From: Escherichia phage vB_EcoM_SP13
Strand: one strand, 5' to 3'
Sequence record: OP352608
DNA length: 64,000 bases
Shown piece after piece: positions 8,985 to 30,164 of this stretch. Numbering within the stretch: position 1 is the stretch's first letter; each line of letters begins with the position of its first letter. Both the position numbers and the translations under genes were made by a program. The notes under the pieces were generated by a model. The model did no database searches. It was not told where the DNA came from and saw only the letters and a list, made by a program, of their open reading frames with translations.

Positions 8985-9199
8985 CAGTCTTCACCTTGAG
9001 ATTCCAGACAAGTAAGGACAAGCCAAGTCATCGGAAGAATCAAAACCAGAGAAATGAGGGACCAGATAGACCAGCACAGGATGACAGACTTGAATGTGTG
9101 AACGTCGCCAAACGCAGCAGTAAAACAGAATCCCATTACAAATGCAATAGCGGTGGAATGGTTGTCTATGGCTTTGATGGCACGGTCGATGAGTTTCAT
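8984..9199 (-). CDS. small membrane protein with holin-like topology
   Basis: GGAGGT RBS; 71 aa with two or three hydrophobic helices; no adjacent lysin, so a holin role is speculative. Confidence 0.5.
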   Translation of the reverse strand: MKLIDRAIKAIDNHSTAIAFVMGFCFTAAFGDVHTFKSVILCWSIWSLISLVLILPMTWLVLTCLESQGED

Positions 9200-9348
9200 A
9201 TTACCTCCGGTTTTGAGTTAATATGATTATAACGCAGAGTCTCAGAAAGGCAAACTTTTTGTGAATTTTAATCAAAAAAAATGGCCAGAAAAAAATCTGG
9301 CCGAAAGATCACCCTTTATCCACTACTAAGCTGGAATCATAATTTTAC

Positions 9349-9378
9349 TTGATATAGCTTGTACAAGCAAACTATAAT
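9349..9378 (+). promoter_or_regulatory. promoter-like element upstream of the terminase gene
   Basis: -35 TTGATA, 18-nt spacer, -10 TATAAT abutting the ATG at 9379, which would favour the in-frame ATG at 9412 as the real start. Confidence 0.4.
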
Positions 9379-10839
9379 ATGAATAAAATATTAACACATA
9401 ATTGGAAATTCATGTACCAGTTGAATCCTGCTTTAAAAGAAGTCTGGAAGACAAAAGCGCGATACAAAGTAATATACGGCGGTCGTGCATCTTCCAAATC
9501 GCACGATGCCGCTGGTTTTGCTATTTATTTGGCGGCAAACTTCAAATTAAAATTCCTTTGCGTTCGACAATTCCAGAACAAAATTTCTGAATCTGTATAT
9601 ACTCTATTAAAAGACAAAATAGAGATTTCTGATTTCAAAGATGAGTTCAATTTATTAAAGAACTCTATTGAACATAAAAGAACTAAATCTGAATTTCTAT
9701 TTTACGGTATCGCACGTAACGTTGATGAAATTAAATCAACAGAAGGTGTTGACGTCCTTTGGCTGGAAGAAGCGCACGCGCTTACTGAAGAACAGTGGGA
9801 CATTATTGAGCCGACAATCCGTAAAGAAGGGTCCGAAATATGGATCATCTTTAACCCCGATGAAGAGGCCGATTTTGTCTACCAAAACTTTGTTATGCGA
9901 CCGCCGAAGAATGCCATTGTTAAAAAGATAAACTGGCAAGACAATCCATTTTTGTCGCAAACGATGCTGGACGTTATTGCAGGCATGTACGAGCGCGACC
10001 CGAAAAAGGCAGAGCACGTTTATGGCGGCGTGCCGAAGACTGGCGGCGATAAATCTGTAATCAACCGCGCATTCGTTAAGGCCGCGCTTAATCTCCACAA
10101 ACACCCTACGCTGGGATGGAGTTTGTCAGGGTCTAACCGTATAGGCTTTGACGTAGCGGACGATGGCGACGACCTTAACGCCACTGCATTCGTTACAGGA
10201 AACGTATTGCGCGGCATCAAGACATGGGAAGGTCTGGAAGATGAATTGTTAAAATCGGCAAGCGGAGTTTGGAAAGATGCGCTTACATTTGGCGCTTCTA
10301 TAACTTATGACGCCATCGGTGTCGGCGCTTTTGCTGGTTCAAAATTTGATGAACTGAACGAGTATGCAATACATGAAAATCCATCATTTCCAAGAATCGA
10401 ATTTAATGCGTTCAATGCGCAAGGGTCTGTTGATGATCCTGATGACGTTTTTCTTGAATTACCACACGTTGAAATACTCAATAAAGACCATTTCGCAAAC
10501 ATAAAAGCGCAAAAGTGGACTGAAATTGCAGAGAGATTCAGAAAGACATACGAATATGCAACTGGGCAAGCCGTATATCCGACTGATGAGTTGATTTCAA
10601 TCGACACCGATGGCATACCAGAACTTGGAATTCCAGCTTGGACTACTGAAGAGATTGAGACGTTTCTTTTTGAGATGTCAGCGCCGCGCAAAGATACGTC
10701 TGTTCTTGGCAAGTTCAAAGTTGAATCTAAAAAGGATATGGCAAAGCGTGGAGTCAAATCACCTAACAAAGCGGACGCGGCAATCATGGCATTAATGAAA
10801 CCAATCGTTGCAGCATCCGGCTTCTTCTCTAACCTTTAA
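9379..10839 (+). CDS. terminase large subunit
   Basis: N-terminal deviant P-loop RYKVIYGGRASSKSH typical of large terminases, acidic nuclease-type C-terminal half, position upstream of the portal; alternative start at 9412. Confidence 0.85.
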   Translation: MNKILTHNWKFMYQLNPALKEVWKTKARYKVIYGGRASSKSHDAAGFAIYLAANFKLKFLCVRQFQNKISESVYTLLKDKIEISDFKDEFNLLKNSIEHKRTKSEFLFYGIARNVDEIKSTEGVDVLWLEEAHALTEEQWDIIEPTIRKEGSEIWIIFNPDEEADFVYQNFVMRPPKNAIVKKINWQDNPFLSQTMLDVIAGMYERDPKKAEHVYGGVPKTGGDKSVINRAFVKAALNLHKHPTLGWSLSGSNRIGFDVADDGDDLNATAFVTGNVLRGIKTWEGLEDELLKSASGVWKDALTFGASITYDAIGVGAFAGSKFDELNEYAIHENPSFPRIEFNAFNAQGSVDDPDDVFLELPHVEILNKDHFANIKAQKWTEIAERFRKTYEYATGQAVYPTDELISIDTDGIPELGIPAWTTEEIETFLFEMSAPRKDTSVLGKFKVESKKDMAKRGVKSPNKADAAIMALMKPIVAASGFFSNL

Positions 10840-22090: not shown

Positions 22091-23629
22091 GTGATCAGTC
22101 AATCTCGTTATATTAAAATTGTATCAGGGGTCGGAGCAGGCGCGGCTGTTGCAGTTCGCAAACTGTCGCTTCGCATCATGACTTCCAATACAGTTCTGCC
22201 GCCAGGCATTGTAGCAGAATTTTCAACTGCTGATGCCGTTGGATCATATTTCGGTTTTTCTTCCGAAGAATACAAGCGTGCAGCACTGTATTTCGGATTC
22301 ATCAGCAAGCAAATCAACTCGCCTGATTCAATCAGCTTTTCTCGCGTTGTATCCACGGCGATTCCTGCAATGGTTATCGGCGACACTGAGCCTAAAACGC
22401 TTGCTACTTTCCAGGCATTCACTGGCGCTATCTTAAGCATCACTTATGACGGCACAGACTACCTGACTGACGCCATCAACCTTTCAGCGGCAACAAGTCT
22501 TGCCAACGTAGCGGAACTTTTGGAAACGGCAATCAACACCAAGTTTGCAGCAGAAGGTGGCACGTCGGTGCCTGCACTTGCTGATGCAGAAGTGTATTGG
22601 AATGCCAACACCCAGCAGTTCACTTTGGAAGCCGCTCCGTCGACCGCTGGTGCTGGAAACCTTTCGATTAACGTCACAGGTCAACCGACAGACCCATCTC
22701 AGGCGCTTGGTTGGACGACTACTGGCACCGTTACGGTTGCTGGACAGGGTGTAGCAAGTCCGGTAGAAGCCATCGCGGCATCTGTGGAGATTTCCAACAA
22801 CTTTGGCTCATTCCTTTTCGCTGGAGCAGACCGAACGCTGGAAGAAATCACAGCCGTTGCAGCTTGGACTCACTCGCAGAACAACATGTACATGTATCTG
22901 TTCTCGACTGCATTCGCCAACATCGGCTCATACTATACCGCGTTGAAAGGTTACTCAGGCGTTGGTATGATGATCCGTGCAACTAACCTCGCGAATGATT
23001 ACATCGACCAGGCGCCTGCTGAAATTCTTGCGGCGACAAACTATAACACTGTAAATGCAACTCAAAACTACATGTATTATCAGTTTGAAACGCGAAATGT
23101 AACCGTATCGACTGATTCACGCGCAGATACTGCTGATCAAAACCGTGCAAACTATATCGGTGCGACTCAGCAAGCTGGTCAAACTCTCGCGTTCTTCCAG
23201 CGTGGTGTTCTGATGGGCGGGTCTACCGCAGCAGTTGACATGAACACTTATGCCAACGAGATGTGGCTTAAATCTGCTATCACTTCTCAGCTGTTCAGCA
23301 TGTTCTTGAATCTTGGTCGCGTGCCTGCAAACGAAGAAGGCAAAGCGACTGTCCAAGCCATGATTCAAGTTGCTGTTGACAATGCGAAGGTTAACGGCAC
23401 CATCTCTGTCGGTAAGGCGCTGACGGAAATTCAGAAACAGTACATCACGCAAACCTCCGGTGACAACACTGCTTGGCGGCAGGTTGAGACTATCGGTTAT
23501 TGGTTGACTGTCGATTTTGACACTGAAACCACTTCCGATAACCGCACCGAATACTATGCAACATACACGCTAATCTACTCTAAAGATGATGCTGTGCGTC
23601 GCGTTGAAGGTCGTGACGTTCTTATTTAA
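22091..23629 (+). CDS. tail sheath-like protein
   Basis: 512 aa; AAGAGGA RBS with GTG start; placed just before the tube-like genes and tape measure; Ala/Thr/Gly-rich composition. Confidence 0.55.
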   Translation: MISQSRYIKIVSGVGAGAAVAVRKLSLRIMTSNTVLPPGIVAEFSTADAVGSYFGFSSEEYKRAALYFGFISKQINSPDSISFSRVVSTAIPAMVIGDTEPKTLATFQAFTGAILSITYDGTDYLTDAINLSAATSLANVAELLETAINTKFAAEGGTSVPALADAEVYWNANTQQFTLEAAPSTAGAGNLSINVTGQPTDPSQALGWTTTGTVTVAGQGVASPVEAIAASVEISNNFGSFLFAGADRTLEEITAVAAWTHSQNNMYMYLFSTAFANIGSYYTALKGYSGVGMMIRATNLANDYIDQAPAEILAATNYNTVNATQNYMYYQFETRNVTVSTDSRADTADQNRANYIGATQQAGQTLAFFQRGVLMGGSTAAVDMNTYANEMWLKSAITSQLFSMFLNLGRVPANEEGKATVQAMIQVAVDNAKVNGTISVGKALTEIQKQYITQTSGDNTAWRQVETIGYWLTVDFDTETTSDNRTEYYATYTLIYSKDDAVRRVEGRDVLI

Positions 23630-23636
23630 ATAATTG

Positions 23637-23654
23637 CCGCCGTAAATGGCGGCC
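23637..23654 (+). terminator. stem-loop between sheath and tube genes (attenuator candidate)
   Basis: GCCGCC-gtaaat-GGCGGC; no T-tract. Confidence 0.35.
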
Positions 23655-23676
23655 ATCTCTCTGAGAGGAATCTGTA

Positions 23677-24144
23677 ATGATTAACGTTTCCGGTTTTGGC
23701 GCTTCGATTCGTTTGGTAGCATCAAACACTTTTCCGAATGGTGTGACTCTTTCTGATTTTGCAGATGATGCTGATCCGATTGACGCGCCGGACCTGCAAA
23801 TCTCTGAGGCTGCAATGGGCCTTAACGGTGACTTAGTAGTATGGAACCGTGCAAACCCGCTTGAAGTAGGTGTGAACATCATCCCTACTTCTGAAAGTGA
23901 TGTCAACTTGGACGTTCTTGCAGCTGCAAACCGCGTAGGCAAGCGTAAGAACTCTGCAAAAGACGTGATCACACTTGTGCTGACTTATCCTTCTGGAATG
24001 GTTATCACGCTAAACAAAGGCACCTTGACAACTGGTTCAGTAATTCCTGGCATCCAGTCTCAAGGTCGTGTGAAAACACGTCAATATCGCTTCAAGTTTG
24101 AGAACGTAGTCAAAACTGGCGTGAGCAACCAAGAGATTTTATAA
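23677..24144 (+). CDS. tail tube-like protein, paralog 1
   Basis: 155 aa directly after the sheath gene; N-terminus MINVSGFGASIRLVASNTFPNGV mirrors the 25095..25592 product. Confidence 0.5.
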   Translation: MINVSGFGASIRLVASNTFPNGVTLSDFADDADPIDAPDLQISEAAMGLNGDLVVWNRANPLEVGVNIIPTSESDVNLDVLAAANRVGKRKNSAKDVITLVLTYPSGMVITLNKGTLTTGSVIPGIQSQGRVKTRQYRFKFENVVKTGVSNQEIL

Positions 24145-24473
24145 TGTATCAAATACCACTTGACAGCGTACCTAACCAGAATATCAGCTTTAACGTTGAC
24201 GGTGCATATTGGCAGTTGCACATTTTTGCCGCTATCGAGCACATGTGCGCCGACGTATACCGCAACGGTGAACTTTTGATTCAAGGGGTGCGCTGTTTTG
24301 GTGGTATCCCAATGGTGCCTTATAAGTATCTCATGATTGGGTACGGTAATTTCATTTTCGACAGCGTACCTGATTATGAAAGTTTTAACTCTGGCGGCTG
24401 TAATCTATATTACATGTCAGAATCTGAGTTGGCTGAATTCCAGGCAACTGCTGAAGCGGAGTTTGCAATTTGA
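24144..24473 (+). CDS. hypothetical tail protein
   Basis: Start overlaps the upstream stop (TAATG). Confidence 0.5.
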   Translation: MYQIPLDSVPNQNISFNVDGAYWQLHIFAAIEHMCADVYRNGELLIQGVRCFGGIPMVPYKYLMIGYGNFIFDSVPDYESFNSGGCNLYYMSESELAEFQATAEAEFAI

Positions 24474-24826
24474 CAACTCTAACAATTGAAGTTAACGAAA
24501 ATAATGACCTTTTTCTGCCTGATGGAAGAAACTTAAATATTCTTTCAGGAGAAAAAGCGATGGTGCAAGTAATCAAGGCCGCGCACCAGATGCGACTTGG
24601 TGAAGACTTGTACGATATAGAAAACGGTGTCGATTATTTGGGGACCGTTTTCAAGTCGCCCGTTGACGAAGACGGTGCGCGAAAGTCGATTGCAGATGCT
24701 ATTCTGAAGAAAGCAGACGTTGCCGGAATCGACTCGTTGACTGTCACCATCCAAAACGGTATCCTTGGATTCACTGCAGAAGTGGTGACTATTTATGGCG
24801 AACGTATAAAGGTGAGTAATCAATAA
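24470..24826 (+). CDS. hypothetical tail protein
   Basis: ORF with overlapping start. Confidence 0.5.
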   Translation: MTTLTIEVNENNDLFLPDGRNLNILSGEKAMVQVIKAAHQMRLGEDLYDIENGVDYLGTVFKSPVDEDGARKSIADAILKKADVAGIDSLTVTIQNGILGFTAEVVTIYGERIKVSNQ

Positions 24827-25092
24827 TGGCACAAGTAATTCATTTTGCAAATGGCGTCATGAAATTTGGCGAAAAATTTGAAGACGCATCAGAGCTGTTT
24901 AATAAGAAGGTTGATCCTGTTGCAGAAATCAAAGAGCAGGTCGAAGAAAAATCCGTTGAACAAAAACTAGATTTTGATTCCATGAGCGTTTCAGAATTGA
25001 AGTCTTATGCTAAAGAAAATGGCATTGACATCAAGGGTCTTTCTTATAAGGATGAAATTCTTGCTGCAGTTAAATCTGCATCTGCGGAGTAA
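24826..25092 (+). CDS. small protein with C-terminal SAP/Rho-N-like helix-hairpin-helix motif
   Basis: SVSELKSYAKENGIDIKGLSYKDEILAAV resembles SAP-type motifs. Confidence 0.45.
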   Translation: MAQVIHFANGVMKFGEKFEDASELFNKKVDPVAEIKEQVEEKSVEQKLDFDSMSVSELKSYAKENGIDIKGLSYKDEILAAVKSASAE

Positions 25093-25094
25093 AC

Positions 25095-25592
25095 ATGGTC
25101 AATATTAGTGGATTTGGCACAAGCATTAGAATTGTCGCTCTTCAATCTTTTCCTGTTGGGCTGAATATCAGTTCTTTGTCTGATGACCAGGATTCGCTAA
25201 TCATTGAGGAAGTTGAATCAGTAGGTTATCAACTTACTTACGACGGCGGCATTTGCATATACGACAAAGCCGCCGTCGTTCGCGTATCCATTGCGGTCAT
25301 TCCAAACACTGAAGACGACATAAATCTTAAGCTTTTATTATCTGCCCGTAAAGGTGGATTCAAGTGGTTGCCAATTCAGGATGTGACATCGATGCTCATT
25401 ACATATCCTGACGGTGGAAGGGTGGCATTCTCTAACGGAACGATAATCAGCGGTCCGCTTGGTGACTCCATAGAGCAATCAGGCCGTCGCAAGACAAACC
25501 GATACACATTTGTGTTTGCCAGCTACGGTGGCGCACAGAGCACGTCTCAAATTGCCAAGGGCGTGGTGCAGAGCATATTGGGGTCCATTTAA
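25095..25592 (+). CDS. tail tube-like protein, paralog 2
   Basis: N-terminus MVNISGFGTSIRIVALQSFPVGL and central ITYPDGG segment parallel the 23677..24144 product. Confidence 0.45.
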   Translation: MVNISGFGTSIRIVALQSFPVGLNISSLSDDQDSLIIEEVESVGYQLTYDGGICIYDKAAVVRVSIAVIPNTEDDINLKLLLSARKGGFKWLPIQDVTSMLITYPDGGRVAFSNGTIISGPLGDSIEQSGRRKTNRYTFVFASYGGAQSTSQIAKGVVQSILGSI

Positions 25593-26125
25593 TGGCTATC
25601 GATTTACTGTCATATAGTCTATCAAACAGAAGCTTCACGATAAAGAGCTTCAACCTTGGAGAAGTATCCACGCTTGGATGGGCCATAGTCAACGTCAAAA
25701 TAAGACTCCAAGCAAAGATATTCAAAAACCAAAGGGAAGACGGCAGCTATATTGTCGATGGCAGAGTAAAGATGCCGCGAATACTCACTGTCACCGTGAT
25801 AGCTCAGACGAAAAGCGCATCAGATGCAATAGCTAAGATGTTGCAAAACAGGTCGACTATATACACAATTAATTCCCGTGGTCTAATATTCGAACGTATG
25901 GTGCTGCAAAATAACAACTTCAGCCAGGACGCTGACAATATAACGTCTCAGCCCATACAATTGGTCTTCCATGAGATATTAACACAGCAGGATGTGTCTA
26001 TTCAAACAGCGCAGGCAGGCGACTCAACAGTAATAGAGCGCGGCATTGCATACATAAAAGAAACTTCTGCCAGCGTCACCGGCGTCGCTACAAAGGTGAT
26101 GAATGGTATCAAGGGGATGTTCTGA
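25592..26125 (+). CDS. hypothetical tail protein
   Basis: ORF in the tail module. Confidence 0.5.
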   Translation: MAIDLLSYSLSNRSFTIKSFNLGEVSTLGWAIVNVKIRLQAKIFKNQREDGSYIVDGRVKMPRILTVTVIAQTKSASDAIAKMLQNRSTIYTINSRGLIFERMVLQNNNFSQDADNITSQPIQLVFHEILTQQDVSIQTAQAGDSTVIERGIAYIKETSASVTGVATKVMNGIKGMF

Positions 26126-26685
26126 TGGACTTCGTTTCGATTCTGCTTTCTGGTCAATCTTTGACCATAACGAATGAGTCAACAGGTCTTCCTGTCTGGA
26201 CAAGGCTTTCACCTGTTTCTGCAGAAATAACATCCCCAGCAGAAACAACTCAATTCCCTCTTGCTGGCACAGCCATGCAGGTTGTCGAAGTATCAAGCAC
26301 GTCATCAGTAAGCAATTTACAGGCAGCAAAGGTTGTAATGCCAGCCCATATGGCGTTAAACGTAATTTGCAATGACCAGTCTACAATTGAAAATATCATA
26401 AATTCATTTGATGATGACGAAGTCACATTTTCAATAACTTCTCGAAGCATCATTGCCAGTAAAATGTCGATGTCCGACGTTGAAATAACCCAGTCAGAAG
26501 AAAACTTGAATGGAGTCTCAATAGTAATAACTTTCGAGCAAACGTCATTTAGCATTCAAGGAAGCTTCGACCCTAAACAATCTGCAGACGAATCATCAAA
26601 TGGTGTTGCTATTAAAGAACCAGTCAGTTTGACTACAACTGTGAGTTCGTTATATAATAAAATAAAATCAACAGTAGGAATATAA
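26125..26685 (+). CDS. hypothetical tail protein (Ser/Thr-rich)
   Basis: ORF in the tail module. Confidence 0.5.
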   Translation: MDFVSILLSGQSLTITNESTGLPVWTRLSPVSAEITSPAETTQFPLAGTAMQVVEVSSTSSVSNLQAAKVVMPAHMALNVICNDQSTIENIINSFDDDEVTFSITSRSIIASKMSMSDVEITQSEENLNGVSIVITFEQTSFSIQGSFDPKQSADESSNGVAIKEPVSLTTTVSSLYNKIKSTVGI

Positions 26686-26686
26686 A

Positions 26687-27103
26687 ATGAAGATCACCAA
26701 CAAACAAACTGGTCGTACAGTAGAAATTAAAATCAGCAAAATGACTGCGATGGAAGGCTGGAATATTCAGCGTCGCTTTGTCGAATTTGCAATGTCGAAA
26801 GACCCTGCGTTTCGTTCAGAGTATACGATGGAAGTGTTGAGCTTCGCAAAAGTCGAGCTTGATGTGGGTCAAGAAATCCCATTAAGCACTGGTGCACTAA
26901 TTGACAACCATCTTGGTGACTGGGAAAACCTTAAAGAAGTCTTCGAAGCAGTCCTCATGGAGAACGGTATAAACCCAGATACTCACGCCGAGCGTGAAGG
27001 CTACTGGGAACAAGCTGGCGGCGAAATGGCTGCAGCATTCATCGGCGAATCGATGCGATTAATCGCGCCATTCCTCAGCGGCGAGACTCCAAACAAGGGG
27101 TAA
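26687..27103 (+). CDS. tail assembly chaperone candidate
   Basis: Position immediately upstream of the tape measure gene; same reading frame as the tape measure, so no frameshift product is evident. Confidence 0.4.
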   Translation: MKITNKQTGRTVEIKISKMTAMEGWNIQRRFVEFAMSKDPAFRSEYTMEVLSFAKVELDVGQEIPLSTGALIDNHLGDWENLKEVFEAVLMENGINPDTHAEREGYWEQAGGEMAAAFIGESMRLIAPFLSGETPNKG

Positions 27104-27106
27104 ACT

Positions 27107-29287
27107 GTGTCTGACTCATTAGAAAAATTTGTGCTTCAATATACGGTGGACTTGAAAGAGTCCATCAATCGTCTTGAGCAATTGCAAGATAAAGTTGATC
27201 AGACAAACAAAAAGGCGAAATCCGCTGGAAAAGATTTCTCTGGAGCATTCAAAGATGTTTTTGGCGAGCTAAAGCCGCTCACTGGTGAGCTAGGGTCAAT
27301 CGACGGAATACTTGCGCGGCTGACATATCGTTTTGCCGCGCTTGTTCCTGTGGTAGCAGGATTGGCTGTCGTTGTCAAATCCATCGTTGATGTTCGAAAA
27401 GAATACGAAGCGCAAAGAAAGCTTGGTTTTGAAGCCGGACTCTCTCCAATGGGTGTCGAACAACTACAACGACAGTTGAATGAAAGTTCAGGTGGCATCC
27501 TTGGCGCACAGGGGTCGCGCGATTTAATCAGCAAAGCTTCTAATTTGGCATTCAATGCATACACCAACCCTGATGTGATGAACAAGGACAACTTGTTGCT
27601 GAACAAGATGGGGACAAGTCCTTTCAATAGTAACGGCGGCATCAAAGACACGAATCAGCTGCTTGATGAAATTGGAACAAAGCTGAGAAGTGTTAATGAG
27701 CAAACCGCTCGTGCCATTGGTGCTCTGGCAGGATTCACGGCTGATGAAGTCCGCGCCCTTCGTGAGCGCAACCAGTCTGTGAAAGAAAGCACGCGCATAA
27801 GTGACGAAGAAACCGCGAAGCTGCAAAGACAGCAAGCTGCTCTTGAGACTATACGAAATAGTATGGGGCAAATTCAAGAAGATTGGCGGCGTATTGAACT
27901 GGTCATCGGTGAAAACGTTATGCCTGCATTCTCGACGCTTGTCAGCAAAACCGCCGATACAGTCGAAGGATTCCAGATGATGTTCCAAAGAATGTCCGAT
28001 GGGTGGTCTGAATTCGTCGACAATTTCATCGCTGACTTGAAACATCCGTTCGACAAGCAGGCCGCTGTCAACGAGCGTCACGAGCGTGCCGTTGATAGAT
28101 GGATCACGCAGATGGCAGACGGCGATGTGAAACGCCAGAGGAACCAGGAGCAAAACGCTGCTGAACAACGCTCTGCACAGGCTCTTTTTACTCGCGATAT
28201 CAACCTGTTTTCAAGTGCCGTTTCAACCTTTGCTGGCGTGATTGATGAGCGTCAAGCTTGGGCGGCATGGGCAGGTGAAATCGGGCGCAGCGCAGGGCAA
28301 TCCGCGATGCCTGGAACACCAGCATTGAATACTGGCGCGACCGTAGGGAATAATCTTGGGTCAGGGAATCCGACAGCATACGACTCAATATATGAGGAAG
28401 CTTCAAAACGCTATGGTATACCTGTTGCGATGATGAAGGCCGTAACAGAAGTCGAATCTGGATTCAACCCCAATGCCGTAAGCGGAGCAGGTGCGACCGG
28501 ACTGATGCAAATCATGCCTTCCAACTTCAAGGGTCTTGGTATCACAGACGGCAACGACCCTAGACAAAACATTATGGGCGGCGCTCAACTGTTGAAAGAG
28601 TATTTAAACGCTGCCAACGGCGATTGGAATCTTGCGCTGACGATGTATCACGGTGGCTACGACCGCAGCGGCTGGGGCAAGAATACACGCGCTTATCCTG
28701 GAAAGGTCATGGCAGCTCTCGACCGACAATCCAATGGTGAGTATGCCACGGCAGCGCCGCAAGGTGCACCAGTTACTCCAGTACTTAGCGGTAGCGGAGC
28801 GGAAGCACCAAAGGGCCGTTATGCACCAGTACAAGGTCAATCGCGCCAAACGGTGCAATACAGGCAATTGCAAGAAGCCATTGCAGGATACCTGAACGTA
28901 CCAGTTGAGCAGTTGATGCAGGGACAAGTCAACAAAGGTGATATTGACTTTGCTCAAACTTACCTTAAGCTTGGAACGCAAAGGGATTATATTAAAAACA
29001 TGCAACTGGCTTCAACTCCAGGTGTAAGACCGAACATTCAAGCCGAAGCGATGAAAAACGCTCGTCTTGCTGCATTCCAACTTGAAGCATTCCAGAAATA
29101 CGGCGGCGACCTTTCCGCGAATAGTCGACCTGGTGGGCGTGATATTACTATGGGTCAGAAAAACGTTGTCATCAACGTCAACGGCGCTCAAGACCCACGC
29201 AGCACGGCATTCGAAACGAAACGAGTGCTTGAACAAGATGATATCAACGACATAAACAACCTTACTGCTACACCTTTGAAGTGGTGA
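27107..29287 (+). CDS. tail tape measure protein with lytic transglycosylase (SLT) domain
   Basis: 726 aa; coiled-coil-like N-terminal half; AMMKAVTEVESGFNPNAVSGAGATGLMQIMPSNF matches the SLT-domain E-S ... GLMQ pattern. Confidence 0.8.
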   Translation: MSDSLEKFVLQYTVDLKESINRLEQLQDKVDQTNKKAKSAGKDFSGAFKDVFGELKPLTGELGSIDGILARLTYRFAALVPVVAGLAVVVKSIVDVRKEYEAQRKLGFEAGLSPMGVEQLQRQLNESSGGILGAQGSRDLISKASNLAFNAYTNPDVMNKDNLLLNKMGTSPFNSNGGIKDTNQLLDEIGTKLRSVNEQTARAIGALAGFTADEVRALRERNQSVKESTRISDEETAKLQRQQAALETIRNSMGQIQEDWRRIELVIGENVMPAFSTLVSKTADTVEGFQMMFQRMSDGWSEFVDNFIADLKHPFDKQAAVNERHERAVDRWITQMADGDVKRQRNQEQNAAEQRSAQALFTRDINLFSSAVSTFAGVIDERQAWAAWAGEIGRSAGQSAMPGTPALNTGATVGNNLGSGNPTAYDSIYEEASKRYGIPVAMMKAVTEVESGFNPNAVSGAGATGLMQIMPSNFKGLGITDGNDPRQNIMGGAQLLKEYLNAANGDWNLALTMYHGGYDRSGWGKNTRAYPGKVMAALDRQSNGEYATAAPQGAPVTPVLSGSGAEAPKGRYAPVQGQSRQTVQYRQLQEAIAGYLNVPVEQLMQGQVNKGDIDFAQTYLKLGTQRDYIKNMQLASTPGVRPNIQAEAMKNARLAAFQLEAFQKYGGDLSANSRPGGRDITMGQKNVVINVNGAQDPRSTAFETKRVLEQDDINDINNLTATPLKW

Positions 29288-29291
29288 TAAT

Positions 29292-30164
29292 TTGAAAAAG
29301 AGAATCCTTAAAGTCACCTTATCTATGCCGGATGGCACAAGCCAAGTGCTTGATGAAGGATTGATGCTTAGATGCCGAATCAAAAAGGCAGCACTTTCCG
29401 TGCAAAATAAGGCCACAATCGAAGTCGCAGGATTGACAGGGTACTTGAGAGAGTACCTGCTTTCCAACTTCACCGCATTCAACAAACGTCTGCGTGATCA
29501 AGGTCAATTGGCGGCGAATTATGTCAACGTAACAATTGAAGCTGGATATAGAGAAGGCAACGTTGTTAGTAGCAACTTAGTCTACAAGGGGCAAGTCACA
29601 ACGGTCGAGATAACAGCGCCGCCGCCGAACATCGTCATACGCATCACTTGCTACACCAACCAGATAAACAGGACTAAGTTTATCACTCAAGCTGCACCGT
29701 CAAACCCAACATTCAAAGAGTTTGTGGAGTGGTCGGCAAAGCAAATGGATATTGATACTGTTATATGCGATACTTCGATTAACAATCAGCGCCTTGTTAA
29801 CCCAGGCCGCACAACATATGTTGCAGCCGCCTTGTTGCTTGAGATTCAGAACTATCAAAGGAACTCTATTGCGGCATATATCGATGATGATACGCTCATC
29901 GTCAAGGATAAAGACAAAATTCTGAATCCAGAACAGATAACGGTGATTGAGGAATTTGTCGGAATACCGATGTGGAACGAGTGGGGCGCTGACTTCACTT
30001 GCATGTATAACGCGGATTTGAAGCTTGCCCAAGGTGTGAAATTCAAATCAGTCTTAAACCCAAGCTTGAACGACACCACATTCGTCATCATGCAACTTGA
30101 ATATGATTTAGCAAGTCGTGATGACATATTTACGGTGACGGGCGGCGTTGCACCATCGGCCTAA
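29292..30164 (+). CDS. baseplate/distal tail protein candidate
   Basis: Synteny after the tape measure; TTG start as in the ORF track, alternative ATG at 29324. Confidence 0.45.
   Translation: MKKRILKVTLSMPDGTSQVLDEGLMLRCRIKKAALSVQNKATIEVAGLTGYLREYLLSNFTAFNKRLRDQGQLAANYVNVTIEAGYREGNVVSSNLVYKGQVTTVEITAPPPNIVIRITCYTNQINRTKFITQAAPSNPTFKEFVEWSAKQMDIDTVICDTSINNQRLVNPGRTTYVAAALLLEIQNYQRNSIAAYIDDDTLIVKDKDKILNPEQITVIEEFVGIPMWNEWGADFTCMYNADLKLAQGVKFKSVLNPSLNDTTFVIMQLEYDLASRDDIFTVTGGVAPSA

Follow-up and report, generated by a model that had tools for sequence, protein, structure and literature searches.

The closest described counterparts of the tail locus analyzed here are found in the Pseudomonas aeruginosa phages E217 and Pa193 (Pbunavirus), whose contractile tails have been solved by cryo-EM. 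In Pa193, the 34 rings of the tail tube are built from 204 copies of gp33, the sheath likewise comprises 204 copies of its subunit, and gp37, termed the 'baseplate tube', forms one hexameric ring in the baseplate cap that is coaxial with the tube (PMC11456595). In E217, one hexameric ring of gp36 ('tail tube-B') separates the tube from the 'ripcord' ring composed of gp37 and gp38, and after contraction the cap including the tail tube-B ring remains on the tip of the tube. The annotation of Wifcevirus has already drawn on this cryo-EM work.

The DNA that we analyzed (the window) is a stretch of 64,000 nucleotides from Escherichia phage vB_EcoM_SP13 (OP352608). Its tail module is 100% identical to that of Escherichia phage F13 (Wifcevirus), and the phage itself is an E. 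coli myophage of this genus, essentially F13. The window phage thus belongs to another host and another genus than E217 and Pa193.

Two genes of the tail module are paralogs of the tail tube family

A preliminary description of the window had pointed to two paralogous tail-tube-like genes separated by three small genes. Both open reading frames are present on the plus strand at 23677–24144 and 25095–25592, encoding proteins of 155 and 165 amino acids, and the three small genes lie between them (24144–24473, 24470–24826 and 24826–25092). Pairwise alignment of the two products by BLASTP yielded 47 identical residues in 143 (33%; 61% positives, 0 gaps, E 2e-32), and the positions common to both groups of homologs span G8 to F141 in the clade alignment. 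The similarity is full-length and extends well past the first 20 residues. Both proteins also belong to the Pfam family PF22764 (E217_Gp32, gathering score 27 bits), which the E217 and Pa193 proteins share: the first paralog matches with 203.8 bits (residues 2–144, 143 of the 144 profile positions, E 1e-60) and the second with 180.4 bits (residues 3–144, 142 positions, E 2e-53). Pfam names this family 'Tail fiber protein gp32'; structurally, it is a tail tube family.

The N-terminal motif quoted in the preliminary description is exact in both proteins, reading MINVSGFGASIRLVA in the first and MVNISGFGTSIRIVA in the second. Its shared central segment 'ITYP(D/S)GG' was slightly misquoted: with LTYPSGM in the first protein and ITYPDGG in the second, the common core is TYP(S/D)G.

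The first paralog is the major tail tube protein

When compared to solved structures using phmmer, the 155-residue protein encoded at 23677–24144 matched the tube chains with E-values of 1.4e-48 (9b42_M) and 4.4e-42 (8fuv_T), and reached only 2.5e-25 and 3.6e-25 against baseplate-tube chains. Its AF2 model (pLDDT 84.7) adopts the tube fold of a beta-sandwich with one helix and superposes on the solved tube, with Foldseek TM-scores of 0.86–0.92 and an rmsd of 1.7 Å to 8fuv_A. In a tree of homologs the protein groups with the tube clade. The gene is located directly downstream of the gene for a DUF3383-type tail sheath protein of 512 amino acids (22091–23629, plus strand; PF11863, E 7e-119), which matches E217 gp31 and Pa193 gp32 in the PDB over its full length (E ~1e-166), and the same order of sheath and tube genes is found in PB1, MyoSmar, XcP1, Karil-Mokiny-1, Bm1 and IFTN1. 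The first paralog is the major tail tube protein, orthologous to Pa193 gp33 and E217 gp32. Judging from Pa193, it would form a stack of hexamers that extends over the entire tail, in a 1:1 ratio to the sheath protein.

The second paralog is the baseplate tube protein

The 165-residue protein encoded at 25095–25592 showed the reverse preference, with E-values of 1.1e-52 (9b45_M) and 2.2e-49 (8env_I) against solved baseplate-tube chains and weaker ones of 1.4e-21 and 3.2e-16 against solved tube chains. For each paralog, the E-value to its own solved counterpart is better by at least 16 orders of magnitude than that to the other paralog. The AF2 model of the second protein is of moderate confidence (pLDDT 72), decreasing to 51–58 in the last 20 residues, and its top Foldseek matches are again 9b45_M and 8env_I, so that structure prediction, too, returned for both proteins their own solved ortholog as top match. 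In the tree the protein falls into a baseplate-tube clade that is separate from the tube clade. Its gene follows the sheath-initiator group and precedes both the ripcord pair and the tape measure gene, a position that it also has in PB1, MyoSmar, XcP1 and Karil-Mokiny-1.

The second paralog is orthologous to the 'baseplate tube' gp37 of Pa193 and to the 'tail tube-B' gp36 of E217. Taken together, E217 gp32/gp36 (8fuv, 8env, 8eon) and Pa193 gp33/gp37 (9b42, 9b45) are direct orthologs of the pair, with full-length identities of 51–54% in the Foldseek alignments; from this homology, at about 52% identity, the location, copy number and assembly order of the proteins in the window phage are inferred to be the same. 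The assignment also supports the suggestion of the preliminary description that the genes might encode a tube protein and a tube initiator, as each of them has its own solved ortholog, one in the tube and one in the baseplate tube.

A position at the opposite end of the tail is extremely unlikely for the second paralog. Tube-fold proteins do act as terminators in other contractile systems, and some of the Foldseek matches are cap or neck chains (9mt4, 9c39, 6rap, 8v3t), which would fit a head-proximal tube cap, i.e. a terminator or neck adaptor. However, the best matches in both sequence and structure are the baseplate chains named above, the neck end of Pa193 is made of separate collar and gateway proteins, and 25095–25592 is located among baseplate-cap genes, away from the neck genes, which precede the sheath gene.

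The preliminary description had alternatively considered a tail structure built from two homologous subunits. A tube made of both paralogs over its whole length, either alternating or mixed, would be compatible with their common tube fold and the many residues conserved in both between G8 and F141, and cyanophage A-1(L), which is among the fold matches, possesses several distinct tube chains (8kee). We nevertheless consider such a hetero-polymer very unlikely, since the helical tube of E217 and Pa193 contains the first paralog only, the other being seen solely as one ring of the baseplate, and since the split into two clades holds in at least five phage groups, with each window protein orthologous to one role.

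At the C-terminus, the baseplate tube protein exceeds the tube protein by about 10 residues and extends beyond the tube core; residues G146, A147 and Q148 therein (G-A-Q motif) are nearly invariant in the baseplate-tube clade. The alignment to 9b45_M covers residues 1–162 of the window protein and 1–164 of the chain. The E217 paper lists gp36 as residues 1–167, and the C-terminal segment is missing from the matched deposited chains of E217 and Pa193, which hold 151–152 residues of the 167-residue protein.

The pair is embedded in a module of mostly known tail parts

The three genes between the paralogs and those that follow are all encoded on the plus strand. The first small gene (24144–24473, 109 amino acids) encodes the baseplate adaptor or 'helical bundle', orthologous to E217 gp33 and Pa193 gp34 and similar to Pam3 gp18 (PF22479, E 2.5e-16; 9b45_A, E 1e-26; 8env_G, E 2e-26). 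The second (24470–24826, 118 amino acids) encodes a T4 gp25-like sheath initiator, the ortholog of E217 gp34 and Pa193 gp35 (9b45_G, E 6e-23; 8env_H, E 2e-21). It matches phrog_120, a baseplate wedge subunit, and the annotation of phage Mansfield records an HHpred match to T4 gp25 for this protein.

The third small gene (24826–25092, 88 amino acids) encodes a protein with a C-terminal SAP-like motif (PF02037, E 7e-6; 26.0 bits, with the cut-off at 23.9). Its slot is kept among the relatives and its sequence is variable, with a dN/dS of 0.11 that is the highest in the module; as judged by eye in five phages, the N-terminal strand xFANGxM is the sole part common across genera. The protein has no relative in the PDB and no counterpart among the modelled virion proteins of E217 and Pa193. 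In PB1 the same slot is taken by gp34, a protein of 142 amino acids that is unrelated in sequence; a homology between the two was rejected as the BLASTP match is not significant (E 0.18). It is conceivable, yet unlikely, that this variable neighbor and the C-terminal segment of the baseplate tube protein (residues ~146–165 with the G-A-Q motif) have an undescribed function in assembly or triggering that is specific to this phage group; such a function could be, for example, a contact to the tape measure protein or that of a transient assembly factor.

Downstream of the second paralog follow ripcord-1 (25592–26125, 177 amino acids; 9b45_S, E 1e-20; 8eon_A, E 3e-20; PF22760 and Dit-like matches) and ripcord-2 (26125–26685, 186 amino acids; 9b45_V, E 1e-27; PF22760, E 2e-71). 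Ripcord-1 is the ortholog of E217 gp37 and Pa193 gp38 and represents one half of a tube-like 3+3 heterohexamer, and ripcord-2 is the ortholog of E217 gp38 and Pa193 gp39. With 21% identity (E 2e-4), the ripcords constitute a second, far more diverged paralog pair. The next gene (26687–27103) encodes a protein of 138 amino acids without a Pfam match that belongs to phrog_4627 (unknown function, E 4e-63). Since it is located directly upstream of the tape measure gene, it may be a tail assembly chaperone, and an equivalent slot exists in PB1, MyoSmar, XcP1 and Karil-Mokiny-1. The tape measure protein itself (27107–29287, 726 amino acids) carries a lytic transglycosylase (SLT) domain (PF01464, E 3e-24) and matches phrog_2013, a lytic tail protein (E 5e-139), as well as tape-measure PHROGs. 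The baseplate or tail hub (29292–30164, 290 amino acids) is the ortholog of E217 gp41 and Pa193 gp42 (8eon_E and 9b45, E 2.5e-85). The neighbors of the pair, namely adaptor, sheath initiator, ripcords, hub and sheath, all map to solved tail parts of E217 and Pa193. Hence, the region 22091–30164 can be labelled part by part, except for the 88-residue and 138-residue proteins.

The spacer between the sheath and tube genes contains a GC-only 6-bp hairpin (GCCGCC-gtaaat-GGCGGC; 23636–23653, plus strand). PB1, MyoSmar, XcP1 and Karil-Mokiny-1 possess hairpins of different sequence at the same spot (z-scores −2.7 to −5.4), making it a conserved feature of the module outside the paralog pair. Plausible Shine-Dalgarno sequences precede both paralogs (GAGG and GGAG), and matches to promoter-like (20 against 18.6 expected) and terminator-like consensus sites (12 against 11.9 expected) occur at chance level. 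The expected ratio of tube to baseplate tube protein of about 30:1 is therefore not explained by these signals. Scans of the window for Rfam families, tRNAs and tandem repeats revealed nothing relevant.

Both paralogs are conserved under purifying selection

In a neighbor-joining tree, 79 homologs form two clades, one of tubes and one of baseplate tubes, with a mean identity of 53–57% within and 35% between the clades; the homologs of the second paralog were a set of 30 proteins from a word-indexed search, which was sufficient for the alignment. A tblastn search retrieved 735 places in 379 phage records, corresponding to about two per genome. The gene order is identical in Wifcevirus, Pbunavirus, Myosmarvirus, Carpasinavirus and one Burkholderia phage, and the baseplate-tube clade is kept in phages of Pseudomonas, Serratia, Xanthomonas, Burkholderia and Pantoea. 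In the 12-kb stretch examined of Bordetella phage IFTN1 (40 kb) we found a single copy, and in Burkholderia phage Bm1 a second copy, which has diverged, immediately precedes the tape measure gene. The duplication is thus typical of PB1-like phages of 60–72 kb and not family-wide.

When compared to phage Mansfield, the tube gene has a dN/dS of 0.013 and the baseplate tube gene one of 0.010 at a dS of about 0.5, demonstrating purifying selection on both paralogs. Several further Wifcevirus genomes, including that of ECML-117, also encode the second protein with 100% identity, and their module DNA is about 89–98% identical to the window. That the second gene is labelled 'hypothetical protein' in the GenBank records of both F13 and Mansfield might suggest a redundant or decaying duplicate without a distinct role. 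This reading is effectively refuted by the selection data and by the conservation of protein and clade. With high probability, the two genes are ancient paralogs with divided labor in a PB1/E217-type contractile tail.

Proposed tail assembly and comparison with other contractile systems

Transferred to the window phage, the E217 and Pa193 structures suggest the following assembly. Six copies of the baseplate tube protein per virion would assemble into one hexameric ring within the baseplate cap. The lower face of this ring would rest on the three-fold ripcord-1/ripcord-2 heterohexamer (25592–26685), which in turn would rest on the trimeric hub (29292–30164). Since its upper face is expected to resemble a tube ring, the major tube protein could stack on top and polymerize into hexameric rings inside the sheath, with the tape measure protein determining the final length. 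Around the cap, the wedge ring of the baseplate and the first ring of the sheath would be held in place by the adaptor and the gp25-like sheath initiator. The tape measure protein of the window phage is shorter than that of PB1 (726 versus 860 amino acids), and its tail is therefore probably shorter, with fewer tube rings.

The term 'initiator' for the second paralog is an interpretation, because names for the ortholog differ: PDB entry 8env has 'Ripcord gp36', the E217 paper uses 'tail tube-B', and for Pa193 the name is 'baseplate tube'. It also needs qualification: the protein forms the first fully six-fold tube-like ring, and this ring itself rests on the ripcord heterohexamer and the hub, so that it is one of several stacked layers of tube-fold adaptors. 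In the literature on these tail proteins we found no assembly experiment.

In phage T4, gp19 is the tube protein, and gp48 and gp54 are the proteins of the baseplate-tube junction that start the tube. The logic is alike in that tube-fold proteins of the baseplate provide a platform of rings for polymerization of the major tube protein, but T4 has two different junction proteins, and its baseplate is far more complex. There is no detectable sequence relationship to the T4 proteins, and a weak fold match was obtained for the tube only (9mkb).

Further Foldseek matches of both models are tube and tube-initiator proteins from other contractile systems, for example Pam3, AFP, PVC, pyocin R2, Mu and Hcp. 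The anti-feeding prophage (Afp1/Afp5/Afp7) and PVC (Pvc1/Pvc5/Pvc7) similarly combine a major tube protein with tube-fold paralogs as first rings of the baseplate. Their chains (6rao, 6j0n, 9qgl) are remote fold matches with only 7–12% sequence identity, and these extracellular injection systems are not phages and differ in their layers and domain additions. Afp7 and Pvc7 carry a LysM-type extension. With siphophage Dit and the type VI secretion protein Hcp with VgrG, the pair shares the principle that tube-fold modules adapt a six-fold tube to a three-fold tip. Hcp is among the fold matches, and the relation to Dit and Hcp is remote and at the level of the fold only; the Pfam Dit_like match belongs to the ripcord pair and not to the tube/baseplate-tube pair.

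Since cryo-EM of E217 and Pa193 already showed the same two-gene arrangement, its presence in the window is real but ordinary, and the tube/baseplate-tube pair adds no new biology. The main value lies in the correction of annotations. The GenBank record of F13 labels both paralogs and most of the module 'hypothetical protein', and RefSeq, PHROGs and Pfam label the tube, the baseplate tube and both ripcord proteins 'tail fiber protein', which is contradicted by the solved structures of the Pseudomonas relatives. Such a correction concerns a genus of applied interest, as Wifcevirus comprises phages of E. coli O157 and Shigella, whose replication was reported to be very fast in one earlier study to which the BASEL paper refers.

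The two proteins are tube-fold paralogs with different structural orthologs

The module at 22091-30164 lies within a long series of + strand genes and contains both open reading frames that the preliminary description regarded as a tail-tube-like pair. They encode proteins of 155 aa (23677-24144) and 165 aa (25095-25592) and are, as described, separated by three short open reading frames (24144-24473, 24470-24826 and 24826-25092). In a single comparison the two proteins align without gaps over 143 residues with 33% identity and 61% similarity (E 2e-32). The N-terminal motif reported earlier is exact, and a shared central motif is present in both proteins, although its wording has to be corrected to LTYPSGM in the first and ITYPDGG in the second. 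Since the columns conserved in both paralog lineages span G8 to F141, the similarity extends beyond the N-terminus, and the observation of a paralogous pair is confirmed.

Both proteins match Pfam PF22764 (E217_Gp32; 204 bits for the first and 180 bits for the second, cut-off 27) as well as PHROG 2420. Their best partners in the PDB differ, however, when compared to the solved tails of the Pseudomonas phages E217 and Pa193. The 155-aa protein is closest to the tube chains (Pa193 gp33, 9b42_M, E 1.4e-48; E217 gp32, 8fuv_T, E 4.4e-42) and more distant from the baseplate-tube chains (Pa193 gp37, 9b45_M, E 2.5e-25; E217 gp36, 8env_I, E 3.6e-25), whereas the 165-aa protein shows the reverse order, with the baseplate-tube chains (9b45_M, E 1.1e-52; 8env_I, E 2.2e-49) ahead of the tube chains (9b42_M, E 1.4e-21; 8fuv_T, E 3.2e-16). 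AlphaFold2 models built from homolog alignments (pLDDT 84.7 and 72.3 for the first and second protein) retrieved these same chains as top matches in Foldseek, the tube model with TM-scores of 0.86-0.92 and an rmsd of 1.7 Å to 8fuv_A. Remote matches, to Hcp and to the tubes and tube initiators of Pam3, AFP, PVC, pyocin R2, Mu and diffocin, ranked below them.

A midpoint-rooted neighbour-joining tree of 79 homologs places the tubes in a clade apart from the baseplate tubes, with one exception, a 144-aa protein found with the second query that groups with the tubes. Identity averages 53-57% inside the clades and 35% between them. Hence, the duplication is old and each gene is the ortholog of one structurally defined role. 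The two proteins are tube-fold paralogs whose orthologs are two different proteins of known place in the solved structures.

Both paralogs are conserved and under purifying selection

Across 22091-29287, Escherichia phage F13 (OP745617.1, genus Wifcevirus) shows 100% identity, other Wifcevirus genomes (among them WFC, Bas98-101, Mansfield and ECML-117) show 89-98%, and hundreds of Pseudomonas Pbunavirus genomes show about 60-80%; the sequence outside this stretch also matches these phages. Besides one further mismatch, the first 22 kb differ from F13 in a 303-bp unit, present once at 2587-2889 and as a perfect tandem duplication in OP745617.1 (about 9139-9441 and 9442-9744), which may reflect a difference in assembly or a genuine variant of F13.

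The gene order is the same in Wifcevirus, Pbunavirus PB1, Serratia phage MyoSmar, Xanthomonas phage XcP1 and Burkholderia phage Karil-Mokiny-1, and a tblastn search with the second paralog returned 735 places in 379 phage records, or about two for each genome. With phage Mansfield as reference (about 90% DNA identity), every module gene is under strong purifying selection; at a dS of about 0.5, the tube has a dN/dS of 0.013 and the baseplate tube one of 0.010. These selection and conservation data contradict the idea that the second paralog is a decaying duplicate.

The second paralog corresponds to the baseplate tube

The neighbouring genes, all on the + strand, were compared to the solved tails. 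The sheath gene (22091-23629) maps to a solved part of the E217 and Pa193 tails, and the first two small genes correspond to a helical-bundle adaptor (24144-24473; E217 gp33/Pa193 gp34, Pam3 gp18-like) and a gp25-like sheath initiator (24470-24826; E217 gp34/Pa193 gp35). Directly downstream of the baseplate tube lie ripcord-1 (25592-26125) and ripcord-2 (26125-26685), corresponding to the E217 gp37/gp38 pair; both match Pfam Gp38_E217 and Dit_like and are themselves adjacent paralogs, far more diverged than the tube pair (21% identity, E 2e-4). The tape measure protein with an SLT domain (27107-29287) and the hub (29292-30164) follow. A 138-aa protein encoded before the tape measure gene, a putative chaperone by position only, is without a solved counterpart in the E217 and Pa193 tails. 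With the ripcord pair and the hub, the module thus carries a stack of tube-fold layers, as remarked on by the E217 authors.

In E217, three gp37/gp38 heterodimers rest on the surface offered by gp36 and reduce the symmetry towards that of the trimeric hub gp41 and the tip gp43; once contraction has taken place, gp36 remains at the distal tube tip together with gp37/gp38 and gp41 (PMC10329688). The Pa193 counterpart of gp36 was named baseplate tube gp37, and the Pa193 tube consists of gp33 alone, in 34 hexameric rings with 204 copies (PMC11456595). Of the two readings offered initially, a tube with its initiator therefore agrees with each protein having its own solved ortholog, whereas the E217 and Pa193 tube reconstructions contradict a tube made jointly of both homologous subunits. 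A role of the second paralog as neck-end terminator is likewise contradicted, both by its best matches to baseplate-tube chains and by the placement of its gene among baseplate-cap genes.

By homology, the 165-aa protein would form a single six-membered ring atop the ripcord heterohexamer and the hub, with a tube-like upper face onto which the 155-aa protein would pile, ring after ring, up to the end of the tape measure, while the sheath initiator would begin the sheath around this tube. The expected ratio of tube to baseplate tube would be a few dozen to one. Since the tape measure is shorter than in PB1 (726 versus 860 aa), a rough guess would be about 29 tube rings in this phage instead of 34.

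The paralogs also differ in the loop of residues 42-59, where N50 and W56 are invariant in the aligned tube homologs and the baseplate-tube clade carries D50. In this clade the C-terminus is also extended by about 10 residues that include a conserved G-A-Q motif; this extension is of low confidence in the AlphaFold2 model and absent from the matched deposited chains (151-152 residues of a 167-aa protein), whereas the E217 paper gives gp36 as residues 1-167.

A variable small gene and a conserved hairpin

The third small gene (24826-25092, + strand) encodes an 88-aa protein with a C-terminal SAP-like motif (PF02037, a weak 26.0 bits versus a cut-off of 23.9; phrog_10541), for which no relative was found in the PDB and whose pairwise similarity to PB1 gp34 is not significant. 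The gene in the same slot of relatives encodes 71-150 aa and shares across genera only a short N-terminal strand (x-F-A-N/G-G-V/I-M); the tail behind this strand is variable, acidic and of low complexity. The 88-aa gene has the highest dN/dS versus Mansfield in the module (0.11) and is the least constrained; gp35 goes unmentioned in the main text of the E217 paper.

The sheath-tube spacer (23630-23676) contains a GC-rich hairpin at 23636-23653, directly after the sheath stop codon and ahead of the tube ribosome-binding site. A GC-rich hairpin occupies this position in all five phage groups examined, namely Wifcevirus, PB1 (L003:2879-2941), MyoSmar (L004:3055-3123), XcP1 (L005:2828-2882) and Karil-Mokiny-1 (L006:3041-3122; L003-L006 denote the compared stretches). 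As the stems (6 to 13 bp; fold z-scores -2.7 to -5.4) differ in sequence in each group, structure and position are conserved rather than sequence. The XcP1 hairpin was annotated by its authors as a bidirectional terminator; no clear U-run follows the hairpin on the coding strand. It could stabilise transcript ends, mark a processing site or act as an attenuator; what makes its role puzzling is that the tail requires as much sheath as tube.

Database labels and divergent layouts

PHROG 2420, PHROG 2580 and Pfam PF22764 are named 'tail fiber protein', while their members are tube, baseplate tube and ripcords according to the E217 and Pa193 structures; for PF22764 and PHROG 2420 this label is a historical misnomer. 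Owing to this naming, RefSeq and BASEL records show 'tail fiber protein' four times in the module. PDB 8env labels gp36 'Ripcord', at odds with both papers, and the F13 GenBank record lists the pair as 'hypothetical protein'. As the tube and baseplate-tube arrangement is already known, the contribution left is to correct the labels 'hypothetical protein' (F13) and 'tail fiber protein' (RefSeq, PHROGs and Pfam).

Two more distant phages with this tube family depart from the common layout. For Bordetella phage vB_BaM-IFTN1 (40 kb), the stretch examined holds only one gene of the tube family (L007 6001-6462), followed by a chaperone-like gene and then the tape measure gene. Burkholderia phage Bm1 carries a diverged second tube paralog (L008 8132-8629) directly upstream of the tape measure gene and lacks a ripcord pair between the two. 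These divergent layouts may help to date the duplication.
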